Part shown: one piece after another, positions 2,736 to 33,616 of the stretch
How the letters are laid out: each line of letters opens with the position of its first letter
Position numbering within the stretch: position 1 is the stretch's first letter
Assembly (NCBI GenBank): GCA_964566035.1
Contig: CAZMHH010000001.1
Span: 21,130 to 85,129 of the forward strand
Length of the DNA: 64,000 nucleotides
Reading direction: 5' to 3'
DNA from: an uncultured Thermodesulfobacteriota bacterium
Lineage (GTDB): Bacteria; Desulfobacterota; WTBG01; CAIYCZ01; CAIRTM01
Translations under genes and position numbers: made by a program
Notes under the pieces: model-generated
Databases searched by the model: none
Seen by the model: the letters and a program-made list of their open reading frames with translations, nothing else
What the model was told of the DNA's origin: nothing

Positions 2736-3329
2736 ATGAAAAAACTTTTAAGCGGTATGTTTATTCTTACAGCAATGTTGTTTGGCTTTACACCGGGCTG
2801 TATTCCCATTGAGCCTAACTATGAAACAGTAACAATCGGAAAACAAGTCTGGATGGCAAAAAACATTAATATTGAAACCGGAAACAGTTGGTGTTATGAC
2901 AATGACCCTCGCAACTGTGAAATATATGGAAGGTTATATGACTGGGAAACAGCAATGAATGTTTGCCCATCCGGCTGGCATCTTCCAAGTTATGAAGAGT
3001 GGACTAAGCTGGTTGACAGTCTTGGTGGTGTGAATTTTGCGGGTAGCAAAATGAAATCAACAGGCACAATCGAAACAGGCACAGGACTGTGGAGTTCTCC
3101 CAATACAGGTGCCACAAACTCAAGCGGGTGGTCAGGTTATCCAGGTGGCTGGAGGGAACAAGATGGCAGTTTCCACAACCTGGAAAAAAGCGGTTTATGG
3201 TGGAGTTCCAGTGAATATATCACATCTGATTCTCATTACCTTCTCCTGAATTATTACGAGGTCATTGTAAACAGATACACCGCCAATAAACAAACCGGTA
3301 TGTCTGTACGTTGTCTCAGGAACTGGTAA
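2736..3329 (+). CDS. Lipoprotein with Fibrobacter-succinogenes-major-paralogous (FISUMP, TIGR02145-like) domain
   Basis: Signal peptide with lipobox (FTPGC). Conserved YGRLYDWETA..CPSGWHLPS.EEW..L and WWSS motifs are shared with the ORFs at 15276 and 19023. Confidence 0.6.
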   Translation: MKKLLSGMFILTAMLFGFTPGCIPIEPNYETVTIGKQVWMAKNINIETGNSWCYDNDPRNCEIYGRLYDWETAMNVCPSGWHLPSYEEWTKLVDSLGGVNFAGSKMKSTGTIETGTGLWSSPNTGATNSSGWSGYPGGWREQDGSFHNLEKSGLWWSSSEYITSDSHYLLLNYYEVIVNRYTANKQTGMSVRCLRNW

Positions 3330-5102: not shown

Positions 5103-5507
5103 TTACTTTAAATAGCCTGAAAAAAACAGAAACTCCACAAATTCAAAATCCATAAACGAAGAGCCTGTTCCAAAGATAAAATCAGCCAACCTGAAACCTG
5201 TAAACATCAGCAGAAGACTTTTCTCTGTTTTATTGTAGTTGGGAGTCGAAAAAACACCTGCGAAACCACCCCCAAAAGGAATATAAGCACCGACCCCTTC
5301 ATATTTATCAATAAGAAACGTCAGGTTTTCATTGAACGAAATTGTTATGGATGAATCAGAAATACCCCTGCCGTAAATAAAAACCTTATATTCATGGCCG
5401 CTAAACTCATTCATTGCTGTCTGAGAATATCCGCTTGGAACCCAAAGCAATAAAATAACAGCTGCTGTAAAAATCCATTTAAAAATAGACATGATTTTAC
5501 TATTCAT
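5103..5507 (-). CDS. Small secreted hypothetical protein
   Basis: Signal peptide present. Tightly spaced with the downstream gene on the same strand. Confidence 0.3.
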   Translation of the reverse strand: MNSKIMSIFKWIFTAAVILLLWVPSGYSQTAMNEFSGHEYKVFIYGRGISDSSITISFNENLTFLIDKYEGVGAYIPFGGGFAGVFSTPNYNKTEKSLLLMFTGFRLADFIFGTGSSFMDFEFVEFLFFSGYLK

Positions 5508-5536: not shown

Positions 5537-5569
5537 GAGCAGAAAGAGACTGCTCCCGATATTAGACAG
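5537..5569 (-). terminator. Intrinsic terminator hairpin (13-bp perfect stem ATATCGGGAGCAG/CTGCTCCCGATAT) after the cytochrome gene
   Basis: Perfect inverted repeat immediately 3' of the stop at 5573, with an A/T-rich tail. Confidence 0.5.
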
Positions 5570-5572: not shown

Positions 5573-7384
5573 CTATTTTATCAAATCCAGAAAAGAGGGA
5601 CTGTTTAAATCATTTTTAAGGGACAAAAGATCTGAATTAAGAGCATTGCTGCCCAGAAAACTTATAAGAGCCATAAAATCTTCGACAATAGGAATGATTG
5701 TTTTACTTATATCCACATCCTTGCCTTCAAGCAGCATCCTGACATAGGGGGCCGCCTGATACATTGAGGAAAACAGTTTTTCTTTTACAACAGGAAATGC
5801 TACTGAAAGAAAAATAACCTCAGGCGCATGCTTGTAGTAAGCTTTGATATAGGACTTGCCTGCCTGGCTTTTTGCCATTACCTTGTCTCTGTAGGTTCTG
5901 AAAAGAGAAAGAATCTCCTGATTGTCACCTGAAACAAAAGATAATGCACATGGAGACGGTGGATCATCACCTTTTTCAGTTAGGCTGAAATCAACAGTTG
6001 AGGATACACCATCAGATACGTCAACCGTTGCAGTTGCGTTCTGATACCCGGTTTTGCTTACAGTAAGTTTATATTCCATATCTGTTTTTCCGCACACAAC
6101 ACCTGTCATTTTAAAATAACCCTGAGCATCAGTAAATACCAGATATCCGCCTTTGTCTGTTTTCACTGCGGCTCCCTGAACCGGATCGCCTGTTTCCGAA
6201 TCAGCAACATTTCCCTCTATTGAACCGTTTCTTAAATTTCCGTAAATAATTATCTGATTGTTGTCAACATACTGCCACCCACCTTCTGTCCAGTTAAAAT
6301 CTGTTGTTCCTTCAGGAAGTGGACCTACTTTTATAGCAACCGTTGTTCTGGGTGAAGCCCCGGCATTATGATCAGTGTAAATTTCATCCTGATCATATGG
6401 CCATGGTTCATCATCTTTATCCGGTGAGGTTGCCTGTCTGTCAGGATAACCAGGCTTATTCTGAGGGGGTACCACTCTGTACGGGCCACTTCCATCCAGT
6501 TTGTTTTCAGCGTTAAGAAAACCTGGCTCAAGATAAGAATCATTGATTTTATATGCCAATATCAGCCACAAACCGCCATCAACATTAATCGGATCTCCGT
6601 GATTTCGTCCTGCACACATGGGAGCACTGTAATCTACCCAGCCTCCGTTTGCGGCATCAGCTTCCTGGTCATACCAGAAGGTTGCCTCAGGATAGGTATC
6701 ATTAATCCAGTAATTTGACCCGCCCGATTCAAAATCAAAGTTCTGCAGCCAACCGTCCGGAGAATATACCACAACTGTATTGCTGTCAGCTTTTATGCCG
6801 GTCTCCTCAAGAAGGTCTTTTATGATAACACCCGTATAATTGGCATAATAATCATATCCGTCCGTCCCGCCCCTTGCTGTATTCATCAGCATAAACTGTG
6901 AATGGGCAGGCATTGCCTCTATATCCTCCAGATTATAAATAAAATAGGGGGCCGGAACAAGTGATGGATTGTCATCTGGATCACCGGGAAATGTCAAAGC
7001 ATTTATCTCTTCAATATTTGTATATCCGTCACCATCGGAATCCAAGCCTTCAATCTTTCCAAAAGTATCTACCTTAAACCTGCCTGCACTTTTATAATCC
7101 ACTCCATAGCTGTTTAATGTATCAGCTATATCTGTGTAGTCTTCTCCGTAATTTGTTACAATATGACACCACTGACAGTTTCCAACAGGACGCGGTCCCC
7201 GTTTTGTTTCCACCTCTCCGCCAATGTGACACAGGGCACAGTCATCAATCCTTGTTCCAACCTTATCAGGATATGCTTCCTGAAACACAGGACTGTCCAT
7301 CTCGCCCATGTGATGATAAGCCCCGAATGCTGTACCTGACAGCAGCATAAATATAACTGAAACACTTATAAACCATTTCTTCAT
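5573..7384 (-). CDS. Exported di-haem c-type cytochrome domain protein (CALCH, CQWCH) with dockerin/Ca-binding-like DSDGDGYTNIEE motif and carboxypeptidase-regulatory-like domain
   Basis: Signal peptide. Two CxxCH motifs near the N-terminus and a CarboxypepD_reg-like segment (GYFKMTGVV). 26 nt downstream of the porin gene, so probably co-transcribed. Confidence 0.5.
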   Translation of the reverse strand: MKKWFISVSVIFMLLSGTAFGAYHHMGEMDSPVFQEAYPDKVGTRIDDCALCHIGGEVETKRGPRPVGNCQWCHIVTNYGEDYTDIADTLNSYGVDYKSAGRFKVDTFGKIEGLDSDGDGYTNIEEINALTFPGDPDDNPSLVPAPYFIYNLEDIEAMPAHSQFMLMNTARGGTDGYDYYANYTGVIIKDLLEETGIKADSNTVVVYSPDGWLQNFDFESGGSNYWINDTYPEATFWYDQEADAANGGWVDYSAPMCAGRNHGDPINVDGGLWLILAYKINDSYLEPGFLNAENKLDGSGPYRVVPPQNKPGYPDRQATSPDKDDEPWPYDQDEIYTDHNAGASPRTTVAIKVGPLPEGTTDFNWTEGGWQYVDNNQIIIYGNLRNGSIEGNVADSETGDPVQGAAVKTDKGGYLVFTDAQGYFKMTGVVCGKTDMEYKLTVSKTGYQNATATVDVSDGVSSTVDFSLTEKGDDPPSPCALSFVSGDNQEILSLFRTYRDKVMAKSQAGKSYIKAYYKHAPEVIFLSVAFPVVKEKLFSSMYQAAPYVRMLLEGKDVDISKTIIPIVEDFMALISFLGSNALNSDLLSLKNDLNSPSFLDLIK

Positions 7385-7410
7385 TATTACCTCCTTTTTT
7401 TTAGATTACG

Positions 7411-8841
7411 TTAAAATTCAAGCTGAAAACGTGTAATAAAAGAATTTTCAACTGCACGGTAGTAGGAATAACCCTTCCAGCTTGTTCCGAGAAACAAAGG
7501 AGACGAAAATTTTGTCCGGCTGTATTCAAACGTTATTCGCATCATGCTGTTAAGATACCAGTTCAGATTTGCTGTAATTGAATATGCCTGTCTTACGCTG
7601 TAACCTTCATGCACCAGATACTCATAAACAATCCGCTCTGCCTCAAAATCAGCATATCTGAACGCAACCCCGAAGGCCCCCCAGTCTCTCTGTTTGATAT
7701 CAAAGCTTCTCCTTGGTCTTATTTTTTTTAACACACCTCCTTTCATTTCCGGTTTCTCTCCTGTTAACATCAAAAGAAAGCCTGCATACCAGCTTCTGAC
7801 ATAGAAATCAAAAGGGTCTGTATTGGCAAGCTTGACCCCGTCATAGCTGTTCTCAACAAATTCACCCATCAGCAGCAATGGCCCCAGTGTATATGCGGCC
7901 TCAAGACCGTATCTCTGCATACTGTCAACCTGCTGGGTAATATTGAATTTTGCTCTTGCCTGGACAGTAAAAAAGGCTGTTCTGGCAGGGGTTCTTACCT
8001 TGAAATTAAAATCAGAAGTATCAAGCCTTGCATAAGAATACCCGCCGCCCAGATGAAGTCCTCTAAGAAACCAGATATTTGTCTTATAGAATGGTCTTAA
8101 TACAATACGCCCTGTATATTCCTTATCCTTTTTTTGACTTCTTCTCTGAGCATCACGACCGTCTCCGTTAAACATGCCCAGACCGTAATTTACTGTTTCA
8201 CCTAAAAGTTTGCCGTGAAGCATAACCCCAACATCCCGTTCAGGCGTAAGATAGTAGATAAAAGATCTTTCATTAAACGGGAGATATTTATCCGATATGA
8301 GATGTTCCAGGCTAAAAGGTTCCTTGAACTGTCCGACCCTGAGCTGAATTTGCGGAAAATAGTCAAAATTCAAATAAGCATCAATCAGTCTGTTTGAACT
8401 GCCTCCCTCAAGTTCCGCTTCAAGTTTATAGGTAAAGTAATTATAAATCCTGCCCTTTGAAAAAAGCCTTGCCCGCCTGATATCAAAGTCATTTCTCACC
8501 GGATAGCTCTTTCCGAAAACAAGGCTGTCAGCCTGAATGACACCGCCGATAGTTGCTTCAAAGGTTTTATTATCCGTTGCAAAATGGACCCCTTCATCAT
8601 AGAAGATATCAACCTTCTTCTGCCCGTCTTTCAATTTTAAGGTTTCTCTGCTTTGGGCAATCTCCGCACTTTCAGCTCTTTCCTCGTCAAGGATATGCTG
8701 AATATCCCGAACCTGCTCCTCTGTCAAAGCGCCGTTTATCTTTAAATATTCGAGCAGTTTTTCATCAGCAAGGGGACCGGAAAAGACAGAGGAGGGTAAT
8801 AAATATATAGCCAATAATATAGTTAAATAAAGTTTTTTCAA
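7411..8841 (-). CDS. Outer-membrane porin, phosphate-selective porin O/P-like family
   Basis: Signal peptide, beta-strand amphipathic pattern and a C-terminal aromatic residue (…RFQLEF). Preceded by tandem riboswitch-like leaders. Confidence 0.55.
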   Translation of the reverse strand: MKKLYLTILLAIYLLPSSVFSGPLADEKLLEYLKINGALTEEQVRDIQHILDEERAESAEIAQSRETLKLKDGQKKVDIFYDEGVHFATDNKTFEATIGGVIQADSLVFGKSYPVRNDFDIRRARLFSKGRIYNYFTYKLEAELEGGSSNRLIDAYLNFDYFPQIQLRVGQFKEPFSLEHLISDKYLPFNERSFIYYLTPERDVGVMLHGKLLGETVNYGLGMFNGDGRDAQRRSQKKDKEYTGRIVLRPFYKTNIWFLRGLHLGGGYSYARLDTSDFNFKVRTPARTAFFTVQARAKFNITQQVDSMQRYGLEAAYTLGPLLLMGEFVENSYDGVKLANTDPFDFYVRSWYAGFLLMLTGEKPEMKGGVLKKIRPRRSFDIKQRDWGAFGVAFRYADFEAERIVYEYLVHEGYSVRQAYSITANLNWYLNSMMRITFEYSRTKFSSPLFLGTSWKGYSYYRAVENSFITRFQLEF

Positions 8842-8956: not shown

Positions 8957-9120
8957 CAATAAAAAAGCCGGGCTCCTTTTTTTCGGAAAAGAAGACCGGC
9001 TTATATCCAGTCATTTAACTCCTTTCCAAATTCAGGAGGCTAAAAGGCTTTCGCCTCTGCCCTTTCGACCGCGCTCCATAGGCTTAATTTATGCCTTTAG
9101 GAGAAAACAGCTCGGAGTCA
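8957..9120 (-). promoter_or_regulatory. Candidate riboswitch, copy A (aptamer about 9019-9120 plus intrinsic terminator 8957-9002) in the leader of porin gene 7411..8841
   Basis: On the minus strand it reads 5' CUCCGAGCUG…GCGCGGUCGAAAGGGCAGAGGCGAAAGCC…CCUCCUGAAUUUGGAAAGG. The terminator is AAGCCGG…CCGGCUU followed by U6. It is homologous to copies B to E. Confidence 0.5.
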
Positions 9121-9218
9121 GTCATTATTCATTGATGAGACTGCTGTTCATCTCTTGATATTAATGCATCATGTTAATTCCTGTTGCTTTAATGGATTAT
9201 ATACCTGCCCTTATACAA

Positions 9219-9381
9219 ACAAAAAAAGCTACTGCCCTGTCTGGAAAGGCAATAGCTTTTTAAATATGTATATTAAAAGCAGTTTTCCCTTTCCAAACAC
9301 GGGAGGTAAAGCCCTTTCGGATTTTACCCTTTCGGCTGCATTCTCATGGCATAAATTGCTTTAGAGATACCAGCTTGGGAA
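9219..9381 (-). promoter_or_regulatory. Candidate riboswitch, copy B (aptamer about 9285-9381 plus 12-bp terminator 9226-9259 and U7), tandem with and upstream of copy A
   Basis: The minus strand reads UCCCAAGCUGG…GCAGCCGAAAGGGUAAAAUCCGAAAGGGCUUUACCUCCCGUGUUUGGAAAGGG. Then comes the stem AAAGCUAUUGCC/GGCAGUAGCUUU followed by U7. Confidence 0.5.
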
Positions 9382-9452
9382 TTATTTATAATAATGTATA
9401 GCACGTTGAGTTTAAATAGTCAAGTTTTTTTAACTTTTTTTCTGTATTGGCA

Positions 9453-10283
9453 TCATCCTTTATAAATAATAGTGCCAACATGTTCTCCCTCAAGGGCTTT
9501 TGTTAAATTACCCTCTTCAAGCCCGTTGATGATCTGAATACTGTCCATGACCTCGCTGTTCATCAGAATATCCAGACAGGGTCTTTCAATAATCAGGTCG
9601 TCGAAATCTCTCTCAATAAGTTCATTGACGCTAATTGTAGGAATAAATTCAGCACTATCATTTTTTTTTGGATCATCAGAATAAAGCCCATTCTCATCTT
9701 TAACCATTATACACTGTTTTGCTCCGATTAAATTGGCAAGCAGAACAGTACCGGCATCGGTGCGGTGTTGAGGAACTCGTCCGTCTTTTGATGGGATTGA
9801 AAAGAAATCATACGGTGGCATGCCCTGCATCACCGGAATGCAGCCCTCTGCAAAATAAGTATAGAGCCTGATAATCTCATGCTCATCTATGCAGATTCCG
9901 CCATGTGTAGAAAGAAGCATCGACAGCAAAAGCGCATTCTGCTCCGACACAGAGCTTCCAAATTTGGCAATCACGCCTGTAGGCATGCCCATTTCAATTC
10001 CGATGGCATAAATATGCCTGCTGCGGGTCCCTCCCCCTGTTGTAATAAGCATCTTGTGCTTCTTTTTGCACTCGGCAATCTCTTTTATAATCTTAGGCAG
10101 TGCCTTAACCCCCCTGTCACAGATGGACTGCCCGCCTATCTTAAGCACTGTCACATCCGGAAACAGTCTCTGCTGTGGCGAATATTCCAAACCCTTGAGG
10201 AAAGTTTTACTGATAAGGCTTTCTCCCATAAGACGGCTCTTAACATGAAGTCGCCGCCCGTCTTTATCTCGAACAAGTGACAT
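9453..10283 (-). CDS. Amino-acid-kinase-fold protein (UMP kinase / molybdenum-storage-protein MosA/MosB-like)
   Basis: VLKIGGQS motif of the amino acid kinase family. Last gene of the Mo/W transporter operon. Confidence 0.55.
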   Translation of the reverse strand: MSLVRDKDGRRLHVKSRLMGESLISKTFLKGLEYSPQQRLFPDVTVLKIGGQSICDRGVKALPKIIKEIAECKKKHKMLITTGGGTRSRHIYAIGIEMGMPTGVIAKFGSSVSEQNALLLSMLLSTHGGICIDEHEIIRLYTYFAEGCIPVMQGMPPYDFFSIPSKDGRVPQHRTDAGTVLLANLIGAKQCIMVKDENGLYSDDPKKNDSAEFIPTISVNELIERDFDDLIIERPCLDILMNSEVMDSIQIINGLEEGNLTKALEGEHVGTIIYKG

Positions 10284-10683: not shown

Positions 10684-11724
10684 CTACATAGCCCAAAGGG
10701 AGCGAAGTTTAAGAATGCCGTGCACCGTCTGCCCCTGCCGGACATTCAGGGCATCAAAGTGCTGCAGTGCCATCTCAACACGCAGGGATTCGGAATCGAC
10801 CTTCAACAACACATGGACAGACTCGCCTGCTATGCTGATATCCGTGATAACCCCTTCAAACCTGTTGATTGGTGGACCAGGGGCTCTACATCCGGAAATA
10901 TATACATCATAGGGAAGAATCGCCACCCGGTTTACGGGTCTGCCTTCATCAGGTATCAGCAGTTTGATTCCTGCCCATTGAACCTCAACCAGTCCGTTAT
11001 CCAGTGATACACAGCTTTTGCATGTCAGCACATTGGGTTTTTCAAGAAACCCCTGCCCATGAGTCATAGGCGCATGCATGACATCCTCTGTTTTCCCGAC
11101 ACTCTCTATCTTCCCCTCATTAATCACTGCGATGCGATCAGCCAGTTCCCGTGCCTCGGCAAGGTCATGGGTGACAAAAAGCGTGGTCACCCCGAGCTTC
11201 TTCTGCTGTTTCTTAAACTCCTGCCGAAGATACCGGGATGTTCTGAAATCCAGCCCTGAAAACGGTTCATCCAGCAGCAAAATTTCAGGCTTGCACGCAA
11301 CCGCCCTGGCAAGCGCAACCCGCTGTTTCTCTCCGCCACTCAGTTTGTCAGGGTAGCGGTTCCGCAGGGATTCTATCCTGAAAAGCGACAAAAGCTCTTC
11401 TGTCCGGGAAAGATTTTCCTTAAGGTTTTTTTTTGTCGGTTTGAGAGCAAGCATCAGATTCTGTTTGACCGTTAAATGGGGAAAAATCAGTTTATCCTGA
11501 AACACATAGCCCACCCTGCGGCGCTGTGCCGGCAGCCGGTCAACCGGTGTGCCGTAAAACAAAACACTGCCGATGTAAGGGGCAAGCCCTGCCACAACAT
11601 TGAGAAGGGTTGTTTTGCCCGCACCCGATGGACCAACCATTACAAGAAGCTCTCTGTCGGCAATCTCGAGACTTACCCTGTTCAGGACATAGTTGCTGAT
11701 CTCTTTAAACATAATTCCGGACAT
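10684..11724 (-). CDS. modC: ABC transporter ATP-binding protein, molybdate/tungstate type (ModC/WtpC-like) with C-terminal MOP/TOBE domain
   Basis: Walker A GPSGAGKTT, ABC signature LSGGEKQRVALAR, Walker B LLLDEP, and a C-terminal about 130 aa TOBE-like domain. Confidence 0.75.
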   Translation of the reverse strand: MSGIMFKEISNYVLNRVSLEIADRELLVMVGPSGAGKTTLLNVVAGLAPYIGSVLFYGTPVDRLPAQRRRVGYVFQDKLIFPHLTVKQNLMLALKPTKKNLKENLSRTEELLSLFRIESLRNRYPDKLSGGEKQRVALARAVACKPEILLLDEPFSGLDFRTSRYLRQEFKKQQKKLGVTTLFVTHDLAEARELADRIAVINEGKIESVGKTEDVMHAPMTHGQGFLEKPNVLTCKSCVSLDNGLVEVQWAGIKLLIPDEGRPVNRVAILPYDVYISGCRAPGPPINRFEGVITDISIAGESVHVLLKVDSESLRVEMALQHFDALNVRQGQTVHGILKLRSLWAM

Positions 11725-12521
11725 TATACCCCTCCAGCAACAGTCAAAGCATTTTTCCTTGATCTGCCCAGCATTTTAATGATTAGCAGGAGAGCAAACC
11801 CGCTCATCAGAAGCAGCCAGGCACATGCCAGCGCCAGTCCCAATTCACCGCTGCTGATATTGAGATATACTGAAACCGGCAGCGTTGCGGTCTTGAAACG
11901 AGTTGCGCCCGCAACCATCAGCGTAGCGCCAAACTCACCCAGCGCCCTTGCCCAGGCAAGCACAGCGCCGGTTAAAATCCCCTGCCATGCCAGAGGCAGG
12001 GTAATATACATGAAAATCTGCCATCTTTCAAGCCCGAGCGTAAGCCCTGCCATTTCATACCGATCGTTCACCCCCTCAAAAGCAACTTTTGAACTTCTGA
12101 TAACAATCGGAAGACAGATAAATGTCTGCGCAACAATTGCCCCGAGCGGTGTAAACACTACATGAATGCCCAGACGAAAAAGACTTCCCCCCAGCCAGTC
12201 CTGTCCGAATAGAAACAGAAGCCCGATACCCGCAACAAGAGGTGTCATAACCAGCGGCAGATCAAGCAGGGTATCAATAACCGGTTTAAACGGAATTTTA
12301 CGCCGAGCCAGTATGTATGCAGACGGAACACCAAGCAGAAGCGATGCAACCACCGCAGCAAGTGATGTCAGCAGGCTGAGTCTTAAAGCAAAAAGGGTCT
12401 CCTTTGAGCTCAATGCCCTAACGATTTCCACAGGAGAAACATGAAACAGGATTGCCGCAAGCACGCCGCAAACAAACAGTGTAGAAACTATTAAAGGAAT
12501 CACTATTAAAAATCGTTTCAT
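11724..12521 (-). CDS. modB: ABC transporter permease, molybdate/tungstate type (ModB-like)
   Basis: Six-TM profile and EAA-like loop (GATRFKTATLPVSV). The stop overlaps the start of the ATPase gene. Confidence 0.7.
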   Translation of the reverse strand: MKRFLIVIPLIVSTLFVCGVLAAILFHVSPVEIVRALSSKETLFALRLSLLTSLAAVVASLLLGVPSAYILARRKIPFKPVIDTLLDLPLVMTPLVAGIGLLFLFGQDWLGGSLFRLGIHVVFTPLGAIVAQTFICLPIVIRSSKVAFEGVNDRYEMAGLTLGLERWQIFMYITLPLAWQGILTGAVLAWARALGEFGATLMVAGATRFKTATLPVSVYLNISSGELGLALACAWLLLMSGFALLLIIKMLGRSRKNALTVAGGV

Positions 12522-12603
12522 AGATCAAAAGTTAGAAGATGTAAGAAACTATATACGGGTTGTAATGTAAAATAAAATACTGCTTGATAATTAAAATACC
12601 CTG

Positions 12604-13326
12604 TTATGCAGACCTGCTGCAAAACCGCTCCCATCCCATGAGATGCGCCGCTCCGGCTATAGTTGTGCCATAAAAAATAGTCGGTTTTGCTGATAAAAAG
12701 CTGGTGATAGTATCATTGACCAGCACGGTTCCGGTAACAAGCAGAATATCCGCCCATTCAACAGCCTCATCTGTTTTTTCAGGTCCCTCGATAGATATTC
12801 CGAATTTTTCTGTCCCGATATTTTGTTTATCCATATCCAGCACCCGGATGTTGAAGATAGATGAGAGAGATTCAATCATTCGGGGCTGAAATCCAATCTG
12901 TGTTATTTTTACAATTCCATAATGCTCGCTGATATATTTGGTCAGAACATTTGCACACTCCTTCGGAGATTCATCCTTACAATGAACCGTGCCTTCTATC
13001 AAGCCCAGACTTCGCAGCACCGCATTCAGCGTTGCCACAAACAGAGCCCTTCTGAAATTGTTTCGAAGCTCCATTTTTAAGACATCATTGATACTCCCGC
13101 TGAAATCTCCATAATGATCGGTAAATGCCTGCCCGAAAGCCCCTTTGAAATCCGCCTGCATCAGGAATTCTTTGCCCTGCTGCAGTGGAAAATCCTTATC
13201 TTCCGGATCACCTATGGCTTCCTTTATTGTCAATGCCCGCGCGGTAACTGTAATATGTTCATCTGAAAGATTATTCCTTAAACACACTTCCCTCAGTTTT
13301 TGTCTCAGTATTTCATAAATATCCAT
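12604..13326 (-). CDS. DUF364/DUF4213-like Rossmann-like domain protein (putative metal-chelation fold)
   Basis: Paralog of 13604..14380 (…ILLVTGTVLVN…). The likely start is the internal MDIYEIL codon, which has a good RBS. The ORF track extends it to 13356. Confidence 0.45.
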   Translation of the reverse strand: MDIYEILRQKLREVCLRNNLSDEHITVTARALTIKEAIGDPEDKDFPLQQGKEFLMQADFKGAFGQAFTDHYGDFSGSINDVLKMELRNNFRRALFVATLNAVLRSLGLIEGTVHCKDESPKECANVLTKYISEHYGIVKITQIGFQPRMIESLSSIFNIRVLDMDKQNIGTEKFGISIEGPEKTDEAVEWADILLVTGTVLVNDTITSFLSAKPTIFYGTTIAGAAHLMGWERFCSRSA

Positions 13327-13339
13327 AAAATTATTTCCC

Positions 13340-13563
13340 TTCAAGTTAGCTCGCAACTGGTAGCTGGTAATGTAATATAACCTTCGGTTTGCTTCGCATG
13401 TAACCCTGGTGAAACAAAATCATAAAAGGTTTCACAGGACAAGCATGATACATAGCTCATAGTTAAATCAAAACCCTATCGTGGTCGTAATCGTAATCGC
13501 TATCGAAATCGGTATCGGTATCGTTTTATAATGTGTTTCGGTGCGCGCGGCGCAACCTACAAC
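13340..13563. repeat. Composite intergenic repeat block (agctcgcaactggtagctggt; atcgtggtcgtaatcgtaatcg… hexamer-periodic run; GC palindrome ggtgcgcgcggcgcaacc)
   Basis: Sub-motifs recur at 18765-18861 (in reverse orientation), at 24463-24495, and at 30686-30703 (ggtgcgcacggcgcac). Confidence 0.5.
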
Positions 13564-13603
13564 TGCATGTTCCATAAAACAGTGCTGAATGGTGCATCAT
13601 TTT

Positions 13604-14380
13604 TTAGTTGCCCTCCAAAACAAGGTTGACCTTTTTAGAATATTTCATAAAAAACCGTGTGCCGCCCGCCTCACTGACCACACGCAGAATCGCAGGAACA
13701 TCATTAGCCACAACACCTGAAAGATGGGTTATCCCCCGTTTTCTGAAAATACCCGGCACCATCGGTGTAGAAGGACCCAAAACCGCCTTGACCCGGCAGC
13801 CGGATGCATAGTCTGCAAGATGATCAAAGCTTTGGTTGACCAGAGAGGTTGCCGTAATAATTACCACAGAACAGGAAGGCAGGAGTTCACCTGCTTTTTC
13901 TTCAGGATAAAGCCCTTCGGCTCTGGAGATGTTCTTTTCAAAAATAATCAACTCGCCTGCCTGCTGCCGGATGACCGGAACAAGTGGTCCGAAGAAACCG
14001 ACCATGCCGACCCGGTCTTGCTTTGTCAGCGAAACTGCATCCAGAAAATCCCCTTGCAGGCTCTTAAAATCCTGCTGCAGTTTCCTTATTTCATCCGGGG
14101 TATTTAACAGCGCATTTGCAGCCGCCAGTCCGACCCCCCTCTCAAGCATCGACGCCGAAGACATATATGGCAACACATCCCGAACCGGGCTTCCGGCAAC
14201 AGGTCTTTTCCCCTGAAATACTGTACACCCTGTTTCCAGCACATCTCGAACCGTGCCGGCAAGCCCGACACTGCCGGTATCAAGCTGCACAGCCGTATAG
14301 CCCAAGCCGATCCGGACATCTGCAACCTTTATATCACTCGCTTTTTCAAGGGCAGCGGCGGTTACGTCTTCAAGGATCAT
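13604..14380 (-). CDS. DUF364/DUF4213-like Rossmann-like domain protein, first gene after riboswitch copy C
   Basis: Likely start MILEDVT at 14380, with RBS AAAGGGGA. Contains a VIITATSLVN Rossmann-like motif. The ORF track extends it to 14476, into the terminator hairpin. Confidence 0.45.
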   Translation of the reverse strand: MILEDVTAAALEKASDIKVADVRIGLGYTAVQLDTGSVGLAGTVRDVLETGCTVFQGKRPVAGSPVRDVLPYMSSASMLERGVGLAAANALLNTPDEIRKLQQDFKSLQGDFLDAVSLTKQDRVGMVGFFGPLVPVIRQQAGELIIFEKNISRAEGLYPEEKAGELLPSCSVVIITATSLVNQSFDHLADYASGCRVKAVLGPSTPMVPGIFRKRGITHLSGVVANDVPAILRVVSEAGGTRFFMKYSKKVNLVLEGN

Positions 14381-14412
14381 ATCTGTTTCCCCTTTTCTAT
14401 TGCTGTAATAAT

Positions 14413-14592
14413 AAACAAAAAAAGCCCCTGCCTTATAAATCTGTGGATGAAAAAGGCAGGGGCTTGGCTTAGGCAAAAACCACTGTTGTTTGAGTCCCTA
14501 TCCAACCACGGGAGGCAAAGCCCTTTCGGGTATTGCCCTGTCGGCTGCATTTCATAGACTATTATAGCCGTTAGAACTGACAGCTTTGGGAG
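14413..14592 (-). promoter_or_regulatory. Candidate riboswitch, copy C (aptamer about 14493-14592, 12-bp terminator 14424-14465 plus U-run) in the leader of the DUF364/ModBC operon
   Basis: The minus strand reads CUCCCAAAGCUG…GCAGCCGACAGGGCAAUACCCGAAAGGGCUUUGCCUCCCGUGGUUGGAUAGGGA. Then comes AGCCCCUGCCUU…AAGGCAGGGGCU followed by U7, 30 nt before the RBS. Confidence 0.55.
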
Positions 14593-14675
14593 TTTTTAAT
14601 CATTTTAATACGCTATTTGATTATAATATGATTATCAACATATATTTAACGCTTGACAGATTCATATTTTTAGCA

Positions 14676-15275: not shown

Positions 15276-15878
15276 ATGAAAAAAGAGTTGTTTATTTTAG
15301 CGATAATATGGTCCTTGTTATTTGCAATGGGCTGCGATCCCACCTATACTGACACCAGGGACGGACAGGTCTATAAAACTGTAAAAATAGGAAGTCAATG
15401 GTGGATGGCTGAAAACATGAATTACGAAATGGATAACAGTTGGTGCTTTGAAGACGAACAGGGTAACTGCGACACCTATGGCAGGTTATATGCGTTTGAA
15501 ACAGCGCTCACTGCATGCCCTTCAGGATGGCGTCTGCCAGACAATAAAGACTGGAACATCCTAATCGACTATCTGGGAGCCATAGAAACTGCGGGCGGCA
15601 GGATGAAGGCTACAGGAACCCTTCAGGATAGCTCCGGTTACTGGCTAAAACCGAATACAGGAGCCACAAATGAAAGCGGATTTTCAGGTTTGCCGGGTGG
15701 CTCACGCAGCGGCTTTGGACATTTCAACCGGTTGGGAAGCGACGGCTACTGGTGGAGCGCTACAGACAACCAGGGGGGTAGCGCCATACTGTGGCGGCTG
15801 AGTAACAGAAGCAGCAGCATATCCGAGGACAGCTACCTGAAACAATACGGACTTTCTGTGCGCTGCATCAGGAATTAA
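15276..15878 (+). CDS. Lipoprotein with FISUMP domain (paralog of 2736 and 19023)
   Basis: Lipobox LLFAMGC and YGRLYAFETA..CPSGWRLP motifs. Confidence 0.6.
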   Translation: MKKELFILAIIWSLLFAMGCDPTYTDTRDGQVYKTVKIGSQWWMAENMNYEMDNSWCFEDEQGNCDTYGRLYAFETALTACPSGWRLPDNKDWNILIDYLGAIETAGGRMKATGTLQDSSGYWLKPNTGATNESGFSGLPGGSRSGFGHFNRLGSDGYWWSATDNQGGSAILWRLSNRSSSISEDSYLKQYGLSVRCIRN

Positions 15879-15928: not shown

Positions 15929-16744
15929 TTAATGCTTATTTTGTCCAAGCCTCAAAAAACCGAAACTTTCAAACACTGCAACCGCTTCTTCTGATGCAAG
16001 ATACTCCTGCAATGCAGTGGCGGCGTCAATATTTTTTGTAGCTGAAAGCACGGCAGCCGGCACAATCTCTTCATCATAATATTTATCAGCAATCACAATC
16101 ATTGCTACACTCTCACTGAACTGAAAAGCGTCTGCTCGTCCAACAATGGAAGCATCCACAACGCCTTGAGAAACGTACATTGCAAGCTGTTTTACCGTCG
16201 CGCCGTAAACGACAACATTAGCCTCAACCCCCTCCATAATCCCAGCCCGCTGAAGAATGGTCTGAGCAGTTTTCCCAAACGCCATCGCTTGAGAATCACC
16301 CAGCGCCAGTCTAAGTCCGGGCTTTGCCAGATCATGTAGAGATTTAATCTCCCCCTCTTTTGATCTGTTTACAGCAATGACCGGCGTATGCGAAACAACA
16401 GGTTTCCAGCTCACAATTTTGCCCTGCTCATCTAACTGCTGTATATAGATAAATGAACCCGGCAGAAAAACATCACCTGTGCCGGAAACGGTTATTTTTG
16501 TCATCAGTTTCCCGCTCCCGGCATAATCCACTATAACAACGTGCCCTGTTTTTTTCTGAAAAATCTCCATAAGCCGGTCAACCGGATGTCTCAGCCCAGC
16601 CCCGGCATACAGGCGCAACTCCGCGGCAACAGAAGCTGTCGCATTAACCGACAGGTAAAGCATCAAAAGGGCGCAAACACCGGTTAAAATGAATCTTGTC
16701 ATAGGGGCAGCGCCCGACTGTTTTTTTCTAATTTTATTTCTCAT
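15929..16744 (-). CDS. modA: Molybdate/tungstate ABC transporter periplasmic binding protein (ModA/WtpA-like)
   Basis: Signal peptide and PBP type-2 fold motifs (YAGSGKL, GDVFLPG). The likely start is MRNKIRKK with RBS GGAGGA. The ORF track extends it to 16822, overlapping the porin gene. Confidence 0.6.
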   Translation of the reverse strand: MRNKIRKKQSGAAPMTRFILTGVCALLMLYLSVNATASVAAELRLYAGAGLRHPVDRLMEIFQKKTGHVVIVDYAGSGKLMTKITVSGTGDVFLPGSFIYIQQLDEQGKIVSWKPVVSHTPVIAVNRSKEGEIKSLHDLAKPGLRLALGDSQAMAFGKTAQTILQRAGIMEGVEANVVVYGATVKQLAMYVSQGVVDASIVGRADAFQFSESVAMIVIADKYYDEEIVPAAVLSATKNIDAATALQEYLASEEAVAVFESFGFLRLGQNKH

Positions 16745-16776
16745 AGAATACTGTCCTCCATCGTTTACTTGTTCTA

Positions 16777-18216
16777 TCACAGGAGCCCTTTGCTGAACCG
16801 GTATTCCCACTGAACAAAGCACCAGTTTGCCGGTCGATTGGACGCCATTGTTTTGGCAAACGTATCAGGCCAAAACCGCCCGAATCCTGCCATGACCCTG
16901 TTGCCGTACGGCAGTCTGAGCGTTGCGACAACATCAAACTCTTTGCCCACGCTTTTTCCGCTGCTGCCCGTCCTGTCCCGGTATATCTGCTGGTTCAGGT
17001 ACCAGGCATCCTTCCGTTCAGCAAGCATAAACTTATGAAATTCAAATTTTATATCAAGCCACGATGCCGGACTGAGCTCAATATTTGCCTGCAAATCCTG
17101 AAGGTTCATCCAGTGAAACAGATTCATCCTGCCATACATCTGATCCCTTGCGCCAAAGGCGCCATGAAAGGTTCGGCACACCCCGTCATCGGGATTGTCA
17201 TCTCCTGAAGCGTAACTGTATTCTATGCTCAACCGGGGGTTAAACCTCATCGGAAGATTGTATGCCAACATCAGGTGATAACCGTATGCCCTCAGGTTGT
17301 CTTTTGCGAAATCGCCCCGTTCCTGAAGCAGTGTCGCGTCAAAATCAAAACGCTTGATATTTTTGCCGGAAATTCTCACCCCCGCATACCATGAATCAAG
17401 TGCGCCCTGCTTTCGATAAGTAACACGGCTGCCGTCGGGCTGAAGATAGTAACCCTGCTTTTCCCCCCTGTAACGTCGATGATGGTCTCTTTTGGTAAAC
17501 ACCATCGGTTCGACCGATATCTCAAAGGTTTTCTGTAGAACATCATACCTGGCATAAAGACCGATGCTCTCAAATTCATGTCGATGCCTCAGACTGAACC
17601 TTTGGACATCATGGAGCATATTGCGGCCGTAATAGATATCAACAAACCCCCGCTGATGCTTCCATGATATCTTGGCGGCATCCCAAATATAACGCCCTGA
17701 ATTGCCCCACTGACCGGGCCCAAACACCCGGTTGTTGCCGTAGGCGATTAACTGTCTGCCTATTTTAAAACCAAGCCCTGCATCAAATAGATTTTTAACC
17801 TCGATAAATGTCGTATAGAGTTCCCAGTAATCCTTGTTCGGGTTGTTCTCAAATTGATGGGTATTGTTGTAAAACGCTGAATCCGGCAGTGCGCTGCCCC
17901 AGCAGGTGGAATGCTGTCCCCACAGGGCAATATGTATTTTATCGGTCGGATACCAGTCCACCCCCGCCCTGAAGCGTCCCAGCAGAAAACCGTCATCAGT
18001 TTTTCCCCTTGCAGGTCTTTCCCCGTAGTATTTCTGATTGAAATTATCATAAAATTCATACCTCAGCCGGAGATTTGAACTAAATGTGAGTCTCTTTTTT
18101 TCTGTTTCGCATGCGGACTGCTGTTTTGCCTGAAGCAAAGATGAACAGAGCAGCAACATGGCCATTAAAAAAATTACTGAACAGATTTTTTTTACTATAT
18201 TACATTGTGCCTTCAT
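16777..18216 (-). CDS. Outer-membrane beta-barrel porin (alginate-export/putative porin-like), first gene after riboswitch copy D
   Basis: Signal peptide, alternating amphipathic strands, and a C-terminal …RFSKGLL. Immediately upstream of modA-like. Confidence 0.5.
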   Translation of the reverse strand: MKAQCNIVKKICSVIFLMAMLLLCSSLLQAKQQSACETEKKRLTFSSNLRLRYEFYDNFNQKYYGERPARGKTDDGFLLGRFRAGVDWYPTDKIHIALWGQHSTCWGSALPDSAFYNNTHQFENNPNKDYWELYTTFIEVKNLFDAGLGFKIGRQLIAYGNNRVFGPGQWGNSGRYIWDAAKISWKHQRGFVDIYYGRNMLHDVQRFSLRHRHEFESIGLYARYDVLQKTFEISVEPMVFTKRDHHRRYRGEKQGYYLQPDGSRVTYRKQGALDSWYAGVRISGKNIKRFDFDATLLQERGDFAKDNLRAYGYHLMLAYNLPMRFNPRLSIEYSYASGDDNPDDGVCRTFHGAFGARDQMYGRMNLFHWMNLQDLQANIELSPASWLDIKFEFHKFMLAERKDAWYLNQQIYRDRTGSSGKSVGKEFDVVATLRLPYGNRVMAGFGRFWPDTFAKTMASNRPANWCFVQWEYRFSKGLL

Positions 18217-18240
18217 ATTTTTCCTTTATCTTGCCAGATA

Positions 18241-18410
18241 TAAAAAAAAACGCTGCCTTATCTATCGGTGGAAGAACATGGCAACGGCTTTAATAAAAAC
18301 CCCTGTTGCGTGAATCCCTATCCAACCACGGGAGGCAAAGCCCTTTCGGACAAAGCCCTGTCGGCTGCTCCTCATGGGCTGTTATGACCGTTAGAAGAAA
18401 ACAGCTTCAG
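18241..18410 (-). promoter_or_regulatory. Candidate riboswitch, copy D (aptamer about 18313-18410, terminator 18251-18287 plus U9) in the leader of the porin/modA unit
   Basis: Nearly identical to copy C through the CCGACAGGGCUUUGUCCGAAAGGGCUUUGCCUCCCGUGGUUGGAUAGGGA core. A 7-bp stem and U9 lie just before RBS AAAGGAAAAAU-ATG. Confidence 0.55.
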
Positions 18411-18505
18411 AACCTACAATCAGTTTATGCTACTAAAGTATTATATTTTGACTATTAATATCCATATAAAATTCCATTCAGTCACATTATGCTAAATTGT
18501 AATCT

Positions 18506-19022: not shown

Positions 19023-19877
19023 TCAATTTTTGATACACCGCACAGATCCGGCATAAATTTTGTGGGCAATACCCCTGTGAATCTCAGCGTTAAAATAACG
19101 CAGCACCCTGAAATAGGAAAAATCCACACCATTATCGTTCGAACACCACCAGTAACCGTCAATACCAATCCCGTAAAACTCCCCGCCGGGGTAACGTCTG
19201 CCGCCGGGCAGTCCTGAAAACCCGCTTGAGTTGACCCCCGATGTATTGGGGGATTCCCATAGTCCCGTGCCGCCCTGCAGGGTTCCTGCTGCCTTCATCC
19301 TGCCGCCTGCAATACTTTCTCCCCCAAGATAATCTGCCAGCAGGTCCCACTCCACGTCAGACGGCAGGTGCCAGCCTTCAGGACAGGCATCTGTTGCGTT
19401 TTCCCAGTCATAAAGTCTGCCGTAGAGCAGACAGTTATCATCTGTTTCGTCATAGCACCAACTGTTCTGAATGCTGTAATTTAAATTTTCCGCCATCCAG
19501 AGCTGAGACCCGATTCGTATGGTTTTATATGTCCTGTCATCCCTAGGATCGGTCATTTCTCCGTAATCCGGCTCAGGATAAACTATCTGCTCAAAGTTTG
19601 CAATCAGCACCCGGCTGTGGAACACTGTGAAGGTGTAATTCGCATTTGTTGTCAAAATCTGATCATCTTCTGTCCAGGAAACAAACCGATATCCTTCAGA
19701 AGGTATGGCAGACACGCTAATCTCACTTATTCTTTCAAACAGACCGCCGCCCTCTACCCTCCCCCCTTCCTCAGGACGGGCAATAAGGGTAATCTCCAAA
19801 GGCTCATCCGGTTCACAGCCTGATGCAAACAGGAAGAGTGTCAGCAGAATTAAGAATATACAAGACTTGGTTTTCAT
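19023..19877 (-). CDS. Lipoprotein with FISUMP domain (paralog), longer N-terminal region
   Basis: Lipobox LFASGC and YGRLYDWENA..CPEGWHLPS motifs. Confidence 0.6.
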   Translation of the reverse strand: MKTKSCIFLILLTLFLFASGCEPDEPLEITLIARPEEGGRVEGGGLFERISEISVSAIPSEGYRFVSWTEDDQILTTNANYTFTVFHSRVLIANFEQIVYPEPDYGEMTDPRDDRTYKTIRIGSQLWMAENLNYSIQNSWCYDETDDNCLLYGRLYDWENATDACPEGWHLPSDVEWDLLADYLGGESIAGGRMKAAGTLQGGTGLWESPNTSGVNSSGFSGLPGGRRYPGGEFYGIGIDGYWWCSNDNGVDFSYFRVLRYFNAEIHRGIAHKIYAGSVRCIKN

Positions 19878-19892: not shown

Positions 19893-20492
19893 TTAAAAAT
19901 TAACTTTATTGTCATACCGCGGATTTGTTAAATGTTGATACATCTCCGGCGTATCAACATCAATTCCTGCAAGGGCATCAGAAATATTAACCGTGCGCAG
20001 ACTGTCAGGGTGATGCTGAATAACCTGCCTTCCGCCAACATCCCCTGTAAGCGCCATAAGGCTGTTTTTAAAGCGTGAAGGAAAAATAACAGGATTTCCA
20101 CGCTCCCCATTGTATAACGGCACAACAATTCTGTCTTTATCCTTCCACCAGAGGGTAATCAACCCATCGATTGTTTCGGAGTTCAAATACGGCTGATCCC
20201 CAACCAGAAACATATAGGCTTCTGTTTTATCCGCTACGGAACAAACCCCCAGTATTACCGAAGCGCTCTGTCCTTCCGAAGCATTCGGGTTGAAGATTCT
20301 TCTGACATTGTATGACCTGACAGCATTGCCGACTTTTTCGTTCTGATAGATAACAATCAGCTCATCAAGAAGCGAGTTACTTGCAGCCCTGACCACCCGC
20401 TCAATAACCGGTACCCCTTCAATCAGAAGAAGGAGTTTTTCCTGCTTCATCCTTTCAGAAAACCCCGATGCCAGTATTATCCCGCTAACCAT
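19893..20492 (-). CDS. MobA-like NTP-transferase, probable molybdenum cofactor cytidylyltransferase (MocA-like)
   Basis: N-terminal ILASGFSERM nucleotidyltransferase motif. Lies in the xdh-family accessory cluster. Confidence 0.6.
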   Translation of the reverse strand: MVSGIILASGFSERMKQEKLLLLIEGVPVIERVVRAASNSLLDELIVIYQNEKVGNAVRSYNVRRIFNPNASEGQSASVILGVCSVADKTEAYMFLVGDQPYLNSETIDGLITLWWKDKDRIVVPLYNGERGNPVIFPSRFKNSLMALTGDVGGRQVIQHHPDSLRTVNISDALAGIDVDTPEMYQHLTNPRYDNKVNF

Positions 20493-20507
20493 TTACCGAG
20501 ACACCTT

Positions 20508-24451: not shown

Positions 24452-24459
24452 AAACTATC

Positions 24460-24562
24460 CTGATGGTAGCTCGTAGCTCATAGCTCGTAGCTGGTGGCAA
24501 AAGCAAAAAAAAACAACTGCCCCGGACAGCCATTTTATTGGTTCCGGATTGTCCTGGTTAGG
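24460..24562. repeat. Composite intergenic repeat block (gtagctcgtagctcatagctcgtagctggtgg plus R element copy 2)
   Basis: The hexamer-periodic tagctNgtagct run is related to 13345-13372 and 18848-18861. The R element matches 18850-18885 and 30915-30958. Confidence 0.5.
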
Positions 24563-26163: not shown

Positions 26164-26167
26164 TATT

Positions 26168-33605: not shown

Positions 33606-33616
33606 AAGAGACTATA

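Follow-up and report, generated by a model that had tools for sequence, protein, structure and literature searches.

Tandem Moco/Tuco riboswitches upstream of an outer-membrane porin and a GEGP-family dihaem protein with a cysteine-less sulfite-oxidase-like domain

Results

A porin and an exported dihaem protein are encoded behind two riboswitches

We analysed a 64,000-nucleotide stretch of DNA from an uncultured Thermodesulfobacteriota bacterium (contig CAZMHH010000001.1; hereafter the window), in which the minus strand carries two complete riboswitches of the Moco/Tuco (molybdenum/tungsten cofactor) class, the gene of an outer-membrane porin directly 3' of them and, 26 nt beyond the porin stop codon, the gene of an exported dihaem protein of the GEGP family (Table 1). 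An earlier reading of the letters alone (the original prediction) had proposed a riboswitch-controlled porin encoded 26 nt upstream of a 603-residue secreted protein. The open reading frames (ORFs), the gap and both signal peptides were confirmed, and the RNA leader is indeed the RF01055 Moco/Tuco riboswitch, present upstream of the porin as two complete tandem copies and not as one.

The porin gene starts at a TTG codon with AAGGAG 5 nt upstream and encodes a signal peptide, while the GEGP gene starts behind GGAGG. The porin matches Pfam Porin_O_P (PF07396) with 105.2 bits (E 5.9e-30, cut-off 20.9), and its residues 82-445 align at near full length with OprO (4rjw, E 4.5e-15) and OprP (2o4v, E 1.1e-10). 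The mature chain contains 35 Arg and 27 Lys (62 basic residues), has a pI of 8.7, lacks Cys and ends in Phe. Its sequence suggests a channel of the anion-selective type. OprP works with PstS under phosphate starvation. The window porin shares its family with OprP and OprO, the phosphate and pyrophosphate porins that act with Pst in Pseudomonas aeruginosa (E 1e-10 to 5e-15), and it is likewise rich in Arg and Lys, but its identity to them is low and the comparison is one of bulk composition and homology only. It also differs in lying under a cofactor riboswitch instead of a Pho-type regulator, and in having TupA and GEGP rather than PstS as genomic partners. An electron conduit formed by porin and cytochrome was considered and rejected, as OprP-type pores are too narrow and GEGP also occurs without a porin.

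Both leaders resemble transcriptional OFF switches

Rfam cmscan found five RF01055 aptamers in the window. The two that lie in tandem directly 5' of the porin gene both match the full model (positions 1-135) and exceed the gathering score of 36 bits. According to the cmscan alignment the P3 stem is deleted in all five window aptamers; related RF01055 copies are 117-127 nt long. P3-less Moco RNAs correlate with use of the tungsten cofactor, Tuco (Regulski et al. 2008, PMC2408646), and by this correlation the window aptamers would belong to the tungsten-cofactor class. Aptamer 2 is not a recent duplicate of aptamer 1, since by our reading of the pairwise identities the two are only ~55-60% identical. 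The same identities give no grouping of first and second copies, and we rejected the idea of two ligand subtypes within the tandem. Serial arrangements recur elsewhere, with two aptamers in locus L003 (8132-8495) and in locus L081 (3881-4388), and three in locus L010 (8013-8532), two of which are 85% identical to each other.

Each aptamer is followed by an intrinsic terminator, with a stability of -20.1 kcal/mol (z -4.31) for the first and a centroid of -19.4 kcal/mol (z -3.3) for the second. When each leader is folded as a whole, aptamer and terminator coexist in the minimum-energy structure. The conserved aptamer sequence GGAAAGG is complementary to the 5' arm of the terminator, which reads CCUUUCC in leader 1 and CUUUUCC in leader 2. 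Transcriptional OFF switches are usually laid out in this way, and we infer that both leaders switch in that direction. The aptamer structure is further supported by covariation. When 30 aptamers, taken from the window and from related loci, were fitted to a covariance model built from the window's own five copies, 91.8% of cells were paired and compensatory changes were seen in 20 of 27 pairs, as compared with 38-52% pairing in slid controls of the alignment. Two pairs of promoter-like hexamers lie just 5' of aptamer 1, which is weak evidence because such sites occur in the region at chance level.

The unit probably extends to a TupA-type tungstate-binding protein

Beyond the GEGP stop codon lies a perfect 13-bp hairpin, which none of 200 shuffled sequences equalled in stability. 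The original prediction took it to be the terminator of a two-gene unit. The hairpin is real, but the tail that follows it, AUAUUAAAUAUAUUU, is not a clean U-tract and the next gene starts only 30 nt on, so that transcription probably continues into three more genes. The hairpin thus probably either terminates only part of the transcripts or stabilises the mRNA, and we regard the unit as firmly comprising two genes and probably five, with co-transcription past the hairpin suggested by these features. GC-rich hairpins, some with U-runs, also follow GEGP in five related loci (L002-L005 and L018), and none was found at this position in L007-L009.

The three further genes are co-oriented and encode exported proteins, namely a 134-residue protein (p134), a protein with PKD and Lcl_C domains and a TupA-type periplasmic tungstate-binding protein, separated by gaps of 9 and 17 nt, respectively. 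TupA residues 23-255 match the tungstate-binding protein 3lr1 with an E value of 2e-80, and the E value to 5my5 is 3e-64. Its score against the equivalog NF041772 is 247.9 bits, below the cut-off of 400. Residues 30-34 read ATTTS and so include the TTTS motif, which we take to be important for anion binding in TupA.

Domain structure of the GEGP protein

The 603-residue protein matches NCBIfam NF041762, 'GEGP motif-containing diheme protein', with 415 bits over residues 22-384 (cut-off 300). NF041762 is a named family without an assigned function, and we found 511 homologues. From the N-terminus, the protein consists of a signal peptide (residues 1-21), the sequence AYHH, two CxxCH motifs, a Ca loop, a domain resembling sulfite oxidase (SUOX-like), a CarboxypepD_reg domain and a helical C-terminal domain. 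The literal motif G-E-G-P is replaced by GSGP (residues 298-301) in the window protein. Across the family G300, P301 and R303 are invariant, while position 299 is Glu in most members and Ser in a few; the window sequence is a trivial variant.

The signal peptide, MKKWFISVSVIFMLLSGTAFG, is of the Sec type and has no twin-arginine motif. The mature N-terminus AYHH that follows is almost invariant across phyla, with Y23 and H25 strictly so; it could supply distal haem ligands, and it could also serve as a Cu/Ni site, as it fits the amino-terminal X-X-His (ATCUN-like) binding pattern. Both haem motifs named in the original prediction, C49ALCH53 and C70QWCH74, are present and invariant in an alignment of 25 homologues, as are D115, D117, D119, N123 and E126 of the Ca loop. 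The original prediction had called this calcium motif dockerin-like. The invariant calcium-binding pattern stands, but a dockerin (PF00404) was rejected, as there is only one DxDxDG loop instead of duplicated 22-residue segments and no Dockerin_1 match in the window protein. Sub-threshold matches to TSP3_bac (18 of 42 members) and EF-hand (7 of 42) place the motif as a single, predicted bacterial TSP3/EF-hand-like loop. The carboxypeptidase-regulatory-like beta-sandwich was correctly recognised, and Foldseek matches it to 5aq0 with a template-modelling (TM) score of 0.86. The CFI-box of the C-terminal domain is degenerate, and other members of the clade end in a full CFI-box or in short transmembrane tails; some GEGP relatives carry SLH or CWB2 wall anchors.

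The central domain is a divergent, Cys-less relative of sulfite oxidase

The domain account in the original prediction missed the largest and best-conserved part of GEGP, a region of ~240 residues located between the dihaem/Ca-loop region and CarboxypepD_reg and marked by the motifs LMNTxRxG, YxxYTGV..DLL and G(E/S)GPxRVVPPQ. AlphaFold2 models have a predicted local distance difference test score (pLDDT) of 83 for the whole protein and 90 for the domain only, with a predicted TM-score of 0.82 for the latter. As CarboxypepD_reg swamped the Foldseek search with the full-length model, we repeated it with the domain-only model. In this case ranks 1-19 among PDB entries were all SUOX folds, including SorA (E 8e-3, probability 0.99), SoxC, PruR, YedY/MsrP, chicken sulfite oxidase and nitrate reductase. 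PF00174 (Oxidored_molyb) matches the window protein with 16.3 bits, below its gathering score of 24, and sub-threshold matches occur in 20 of 42 GEGP members (best E 1.4e-4). A profile of the domain found only 380 proteins among 1.84 billion representatives, so that the family is small. Two of these 380 are genuine Oxidored_molyb proteins with several repeats (126 and 200 bits), which the profile matches with E values of 3e-28 and 1.2e-18. Pulling the other way, TM-scores of the domain to SUOX structures are low (~0.2), phmmer and profile searches against PDB reach no solved SUOX enzyme, and hhalign of the domain against Escherichia coli MsrP is not significant (probability <1%). On this evidence we conclude that the central domain of GEGP is homologous to the SUOX fold and highly divergent.

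In the family alignments the only invariant Cys residues are the four that bind haem. At the position of C257, several members and every Actinomycetota copy have a residue other than Cys, and in our motif-level alignment LMNTxRxG occupies the place of the Cys-x-Gly-Asn-Arg loop. Attachment of c-type haem implies Sec export, whereas Moco enzymes destined for export are folded in the cytoplasm and leave by the Tat pathway. Given the lack of an invariant non-haem Cys, the LMNTxRxG sequence at the Cys loop and the Sec-type signal, this is not a normal Moco domain, and GEGP almost certainly carries no Moco.

The best structural match, SorAB sulfite dehydrogenase of Starkeya novella (2blf), likewise is periplasmic and unites c-type haem with a SUOX-fold module. 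GEGP differs from it in that the Mo-ligating Cys is absent, the signal peptide is not Tat-like, PF00174 is sub-threshold, and the haems are fused within one Sec-exported polypeptide. A further parallel is PruR of Agrobacterium (7kos/7kou), a periplasmic pterin binder with a Cys-less, degenerate SUOX fold (PMC11194511), which demonstrates that the exported fold can function outside the cytoplasm without Moco. PruR, however, is a small single-domain protein with a conserved PW motif, no haem and a cyclic di-GMP enzyme as its partner, whereas GEGP is larger, has two haems and a Ca loop, and is partnered by a porin, TupA and a Moco riboswitch. We also note two proteins, P0234 and P0267, with four tandem Cys-less Oxidored_molyb domains each. 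One is apparently a lipoprotein (LAGC in the signal region), and CARDB/Ig-like domains are present in the second; the two represent a further, uncharacterised group of surface proteins with a cofactor-less SUOX fold.

The porin-GEGP pair is conserved and linked to tungstate genes

A scan of one genome per species gave 80 GEGP loci, 79 of which were usable. Neighbours were compared by BLAST with the window proteins and, independently, by de novo clustering of neighbouring ORFs, with the same picture from both. A porin homologue lies directly upstream on the same strand in 67 of the 79 loci, at a median of ~30 nt before the called GEGP start. A TupA-like gene on the strand of GEGP was found in 19 loci, an ATP-binding cassette (ABC) ATPase in 15, a p134 homologue following GEGP in 12, and an adjacent regulator with HTH_17 and PBP_like (PF12727) domains, putatively of an oxyanion-responsive type, also in 12. 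TupB neighbours GEGP in six loci, PKD/Lcl_C homologues are clustered as in the window in four (L002, L003, L004 and L014), and the tungstoenzyme aldehyde:ferredoxin oxidoreductase (AOR) is encoded nearby in three. L074 is fully colinear and reads porin-GEGP-regulator-tupA-tupB-tupC. Cultured carriers of the pair include Desulfatibacillum alkenivorans DSM 16219, Desulfonema magnum 4be13 and Desulfamplus magnetovallimortis; Desulfosarcina cetonica has GEGP without an adjacent porin match.

RF01055 lies 5' of the pair in 13 Thermodesulfobacteriota loci, all from the window's clade (with CarboxypepD_reg), which bears out the expectation that the pair is conserved behind the same RNA. TupA lies inside the same co-oriented array in four of these 13: L008, L014 and L016 read riboswitch-TupA-riboswitch-porin-GEGP-p134, and L009 reads riboswitch-TupA-porin-GEGP-p134. 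A further 14 porin-GEGP loci searched with Rfam yielded no riboswitch. Leaderless pairs remain paired, often beside tupABC and HTH_17+PBP_like regulators. The original prediction had named genes lying apart without the leader as evidence against it; most pairs are indeed leaderless, but the two genes stay together, and in the Actinomycetota loci and those with Bacillota-type anchors, where the porin is missing, GEGP keeps the riboswitch.

This last arrangement was seen in five loci labelled Actinomycetota/Coriobacteriia (GC ~64%), in which RF01055 lies immediately 5' of GEGP, in two copies in L081, and no porin was detected. Several of the five are closely related to one another, and ORF calling in these high-GC loci is too noisy to define neighbours. 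Two further operons, in L086 (1327-6796) and L087 (1976-7276), are each preceded by RF01055 (67 bits) and run in the order ResB, CcsA, Big_5/fn3, GEGP, and their GEGP members, one scoring 381 bits on NF041762, bear CWB2 or SLH wall anchors. We take such anchors to be typical of Bacillota and assigned these two operons to that taxon by them. The L086 operon is flanked by XdhC and MoCF_biosynth genes. It appears that in L086 and L087 a cytochrome c maturation system is dedicated to one riboswitch-controlled surface protein, and since these operons bring their own haem-attachment genes, ResB and CcsA, the CxxCH motifs are probably real haem sites. The hosts of these porin-less loci presumably have no outer membrane. 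Taken together, these sequence features show GEGP as a protein predicted to act extracytoplasmically, either in the periplasm or at the cell wall, and with an expression predicted to be tied to Moco/Tuco status in three phyla, the third assigned from anchor type.

Discussion

A candidate module for tungstate/molybdate acquisition

We consider it rather probable that the locus is a cofactor-repressed tungstate/molybdate acquisition module of the cell envelope. Transcription would start just 5' of position 9392 and pass two successive cofactor-sensing riboswitches. With plentiful cofactor the aptamers would fold and the downstream terminators would halt RNA polymerase; with scarce cofactor GGAAAGG would pair with the 5' arm of the terminator and permit read-through, and two switches in series would give a tighter repression and a steeper response. 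The Arg/Lys-rich channel would then admit the oxyanion by analogy with OprP serving Pst, i.e. as a starvation-induced, anion-specific outer-membrane channel that feeds a periplasmic binding protein and an ABC importer. The GEGP made alongside would be a protein of the extracytoplasmic space that is stabilised by Ca, binds two c-type haems and has a SUOX-fold domain without its former Mo-binding Cys, and partial read-through of the hairpin would add the two small exported proteins and TupA, which would pass tungstate to an inner-membrane ABC permease. The Mo/W link and surface handling of oxyanions, which the original prediction had put forward, gain support from synteny in three phyla. Its equal weighting of molybdate and tungstate fares less well, as the P3-less aptamers, TupA and the AOR neighbours together suggest a preference for tungsten.

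Several observations count against this reading. About 54 of the 67 porin-GEGP pairs have no riboswitch, and a TupA-like gene lies within 10 kb in only about one quarter of the loci. No TupBC genes adjoin the window TupA, and the nearest permease and ATPase are of the Mod/Wtp type. As a criterion for tungsten, the loss of P3 goes back to a correlation published in 2008 and not to a measured specificity. The hairpin that follows GEGP might terminate transcription completely, in which case TupA would be expressed separately. Finally, the biochemical role of GEGP, including any contact with W or Mo, is a proposal, and a literature search on 'GEGP motif-containing diheme' found no paper.

Possible roles of GEGP

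We tentatively favour, at a modest chance, a redox or binding step performed by GEGP on the metal anion, perhaps in the thiolated or mineral-bound form of sulfidic habitats, before it reaches TupA. We favour this step because GEGP is extracytoplasmic, brings haem maturation genes with it in L086 and L087, and keeps a conserved, cofactor-less SUOX pocket. GEGP would bind the W/Mo anion, or its thio- or mineral-bound form, in the vestigial cofactor pocket, and its haems would convert the bound form into an oxyanion usable by TupA or ModA. It is a speculative thought, and one we would not put above doubtful, that GEGP is an 'inside-out' relative of sulfite oxidase that acts on environmental Mo/W at the cell surface. 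In one version its haems would remove sulfide from thiotungstate, thiomolybdate or mineral-bound metal, or change the redox state of these species; in a more radical version it would capture pterin-bound Mo/W (Moco, Tuco or a precursor) shed by other cells. Either version, if true, would constitute a new extracellular step of W/Mo acquisition in anaerobes of sulfidic habitats, under cofactor control in three phyla.

Other roles have to be weighed against this redox or binding step. B12 riboswitches control the B12-independent metE, and by analogy GEGP could be a cofactor-sparing, haem-based oxidoreductase that replaces a Moco/Tuco enzyme under cofactor shortage, with the porin supplying an anionic substrate such as sulfite. 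The OFF-type riboswitch logic is consistent with this, as is a domain that derives from the sulfite-oxidase fold and has lost the Mo ligand and gained haems, and there is no transporter in the operons of L086/L087 and the Actinomycetota loci. We nevertheless regard it as unlikely, given that the Thermodesulfobacteriota pair is repeatedly colinear with tupA or tupABC and PBP_like regulators, which fits supply. Moreover, the Moco/Tuco enzymes of such anaerobes (formate dehydrogenase, AOR and the xanthine-dehydrogenase family) are mostly cytoplasmic, and a wall-anchored protein could not substitute for them. Quite unlikely in our judgement is a GEGP that captures an extracytoplasmic pterin (molybdopterin, Moco/Tuco, cyclic pyranopterin monophosphate or another) for salvage or sensing, the pterin being admitted by the porin. 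For B12, BtuB offers an example of riboswitch-controlled uptake of a finished cofactor across the outer membrane. PruR, the only Cys-less protein of the SUOX fold characterised so far, binds a pterin (PMC11194511) and is among the fold matches. However, OprO/OprP-type channels are narrow anion filters (PMC5877670; the inference on size is ours), no permease for a pterin-type molecule is conserved beside GEGP, the neighbours are instead TupA and oxyanion-type regulators, and simple binding would not need two covalent haems with dedicated maturation genes.

A respiratory or detoxifying unit for oxyanion reduction, in which the tie to Mo/W would be incidental or protective, is suggested by ExtI, a Porin_O_P-like porin encoded with c-type cytochromes in Geobacter (extHIJKLMNOPQS) and implicated in selenite/tellurite handling (PMC5877670). 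The two systems are alike in placing such a porin next to c-type cytochromes and in the proposed admission of a non-phosphate oxyanion, and the window porin has a weak similarity to NCBIfam ExtI. That score, 39 bits, is far under the cut-off of 150, though, and ExtI has other cytochrome partners and is linked to reduction/resistance and Fur/iron rather than to Mo/W cofactor status. Expression at low cofactor is the opposite of what detoxification needs, and on this contradiction with OFF-switch logic we rejected a detoxification role as such. As TupA and tupABC are linked to the pair and the link between riboswitch and GEGP persists in porin-less loci, we hold an ExtI-like unit to be very unlikely. 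Homology to the SUOX fold could also be read as the mark of a genuine Moco/Tuco enzyme, with the riboswitch controlling a user of the cofactor, and Regulski et al. did find Moco RNAs before some cofactor-using enzymes (PMC2408646). This is highly improbable for a protein that has no invariant Cys to ligate Mo/W, a sub-threshold PF00174 score, a Sec-type signal peptide with covalent c-haems and an expression platform resembling an OFF switch.

Relation to known regulons and significance

The window resembles the Moco/Tuco regulons of Regulski et al. 2008 (modABC, tupABC and moa; PMC2408646) in its RNA family, terminator-type platforms, control of metal uptake and the P3-less variant tied to tungsten metabolism, but it places under this control a porin of the outer membrane and an exported, SUOX-like protein with two haems. 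Tandem Moco RNAs were reported there for S. wolfei and G. metallireducens, and the words 'porin' and 'cytochrome' are absent from that paper. Our searches found no literature combining 'Moco riboswitch' with 'porin', and nothing relevant on tungstate with porin, TupA or cytochrome. The RNA class, its tandem arrangement, the porin family and TupA were already known. In the searchable literature we found no precedent for a Moco/Tuco riboswitch that governs an outer-membrane porin, for the conservation of porin and GEGP as a pair linked to tup genes, for the association of this riboswitch with GEGP in three phyla, or for the assignment of GEGP to the dihaem, Cys-less surface proteins with a SUOX fold.

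The passage of tungstate and molybdate across the outer membrane is, to our knowledge, essentially uncharacterised, as is their acquisition by anaerobes under sulfidic conditions, which thiolate or precipitate the metals. The locus provides two candidate dedicated outer-membrane channels, an OprO/P-type porin paired with TupA and an AlgE-type porin paired with ModA, as well as a natural case of two or three riboswitches of the same class in series. Riboswitch-linked genes without an assigned function have repeatedly yielded new transporters and salvage routes, and for this reason GEGP, a conserved and uncharacterised exported haem protein whose expression appears tied to Moco/Tuco status, is a concrete lead. 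It would also add to the roles known for molybdenum-free forms of the sulfite-oxidase fold.

Table 1. Features of the porin-GEGP unit and of the surrounding Mo/W genes (window positions)
Feature	Position	Strand	Evidence or remark
Promoter-like hexamers TTGACT-17-TATACA and TTTAAA-17-TATTAT	9388..9423	-	sequence reading, just 5' of aptamer 1
Aptamer 1, Moco/Tuco riboswitch	9392-9270	-	RF01055 82.2 bits, E 2.1e-18
Predicted intrinsic terminator, riboswitch 1	9213..9261	-	16-bp stem (hairpin 9261-9223), then UUUUUUUGUUUGU
Aptamer 2, Moco/Tuco riboswitch	9129-9002	-	RF01055 52.9 bits, E 8e-10
Predicted intrinsic terminator, riboswitch 2	8959..9002	-	interrupted 15-bp stem (about 9002-8965), then UUUUUUA
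OprO/OprP-family outer-membrane porin, 476 aa	7411..8841	-	Pfam Porin_O_P (PF07396)
GEGP-family exported dihaem protein, 603 aa	5573..7384	-	NCBIfam NF041762
Mature N-terminus AYHH, residues 22-25	7313..7321	-	
Dihaem region, residues 22-110	7055..7321	-	C49xxCH53 and C70xxCH74
Predicted Ca-binding loop DSDGDGYTNIEE, residues 115-126	7007..7042	-	invariant DxDxDG..N..E pattern
Cys-less sulfite-oxidase-fold (Oxidored_molyb-like) domain, residues 142-385	6230..6961	-	Foldseek, PF00174, domain profile
CarboxypepD_reg beta-sandwich, residues 388-469	5978..6223	-	Pfam 46.8 bits, cut-off 32.3
Helical C-terminal domain, degenerate CFI-box (PCALSF...LFRTYRD)	5576..5950	-	NF041770 31 bits, cut-off 40
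Perfect 13-bp hairpin, 3' of GEGP stop	5537..5569	-	-23.1 kcal/mol, z -6.35
Exported 134-aa protein (p134)	5103..5507	-	no Pfam/NCBIfam match
Exported PKD + Lcl_C protein, 294 aa	4209..5093	-	Pfam
TupA-type periplasmic tungstate-binding protein, 270 aa	3379..4191	-	PDB homology
MosB-like molybdenum-storage gene	9453..10283	-	2ogx_B E 1e-68
Unit behind third riboswitch	10684..14603	-	P3-less aptamer 14603-14479, DUF4213/DUF364 gene, second DUF364-like gene, ModB/ModC-type permease and ATPase
Parallel module	15929..18424	-	RF01055 18424-18298, Alginate_exp porin 18216..16777, ModA-like 16822..15929
Cofactor and enzyme gene cluster	19893..29982	-	MocA-like, YqeC, XdhC, xanthine-dehydrogenase-family subunits
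Fifth riboswitch	32391-32513	+	followed by MoCF_biosynth gene 32574..33605
Transposase-like gene	30900..32165	-	HTH_29/HTH_32-type
Transposase-like gene	33617..34831	+	HTH_29/HTH_32-type
Paralogous exported protein	2736..3329	+	
Paralogous exported protein	15276..15878	+	
Paralogous exported protein	19023..19877	-	

Other genes of the Mo/W island

The surrounding region of the window is a Mo/W island. The original prediction had also pointed to a second, unrelated porin with a modA-like gene under the same element, and this was borne out by the parallel module, whose porin belongs to Alginate_exp. Homologues of this porin lie directly before modA-modB-modC in Desulfoglaeba alkanexedens and another genome, and one adjoins modABC in a Nitrospirae metagenome-assembled genome; Rfam found no riboswitch at these three loci (L083-L085). 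An Alginate_exp-type porin also directly follows GEGP in L015. Since two unrelated porin families are each tied to a Mo/W binding protein, dedicated outer-membrane channels are independently supported. No binding-protein gene lies beside the ModB/ModC-type permease and ATPase of the third riboswitch unit, and because TupA and ModA are both orphan binding proteins, this one permease may serve both.

Directly upstream of the tandem riboswitches lies a single MosB-like gene, whose product is closely homologous to the molybdenum storage protein of Azotobacter (E 1e-68 to MosB, 3e-44 to MosA). BLAST homologues of it occur near GEGP also in L010, L013 and L059. It may represent a one-subunit MoSto-like protein that stores W or Mo in a strict anaerobe.

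The large cluster further along the minus strand encodes a MocA-like (MobA-like) nucleotidyltransferase, YqeC and XdhC together with two large subunits of the xanthine-dehydrogenase family and [2Fe-2S] and FAD subunits, and these enzymes likely use the cofactor that the riboswitch-controlled genes supply. The fifth riboswitch and its MoCF_biosynth gene are flanked on both sides by transposase-like genes, and this unit (30900..34831) may be mobile. We also observed three paralogous exported proteins scattered among the Mo/W genes, which share the motifs W(M/W)A(E/K)N(L/M/I)N...YGRLY(D/A)(W/F)E...SVRC(L/I)(R/K)N.

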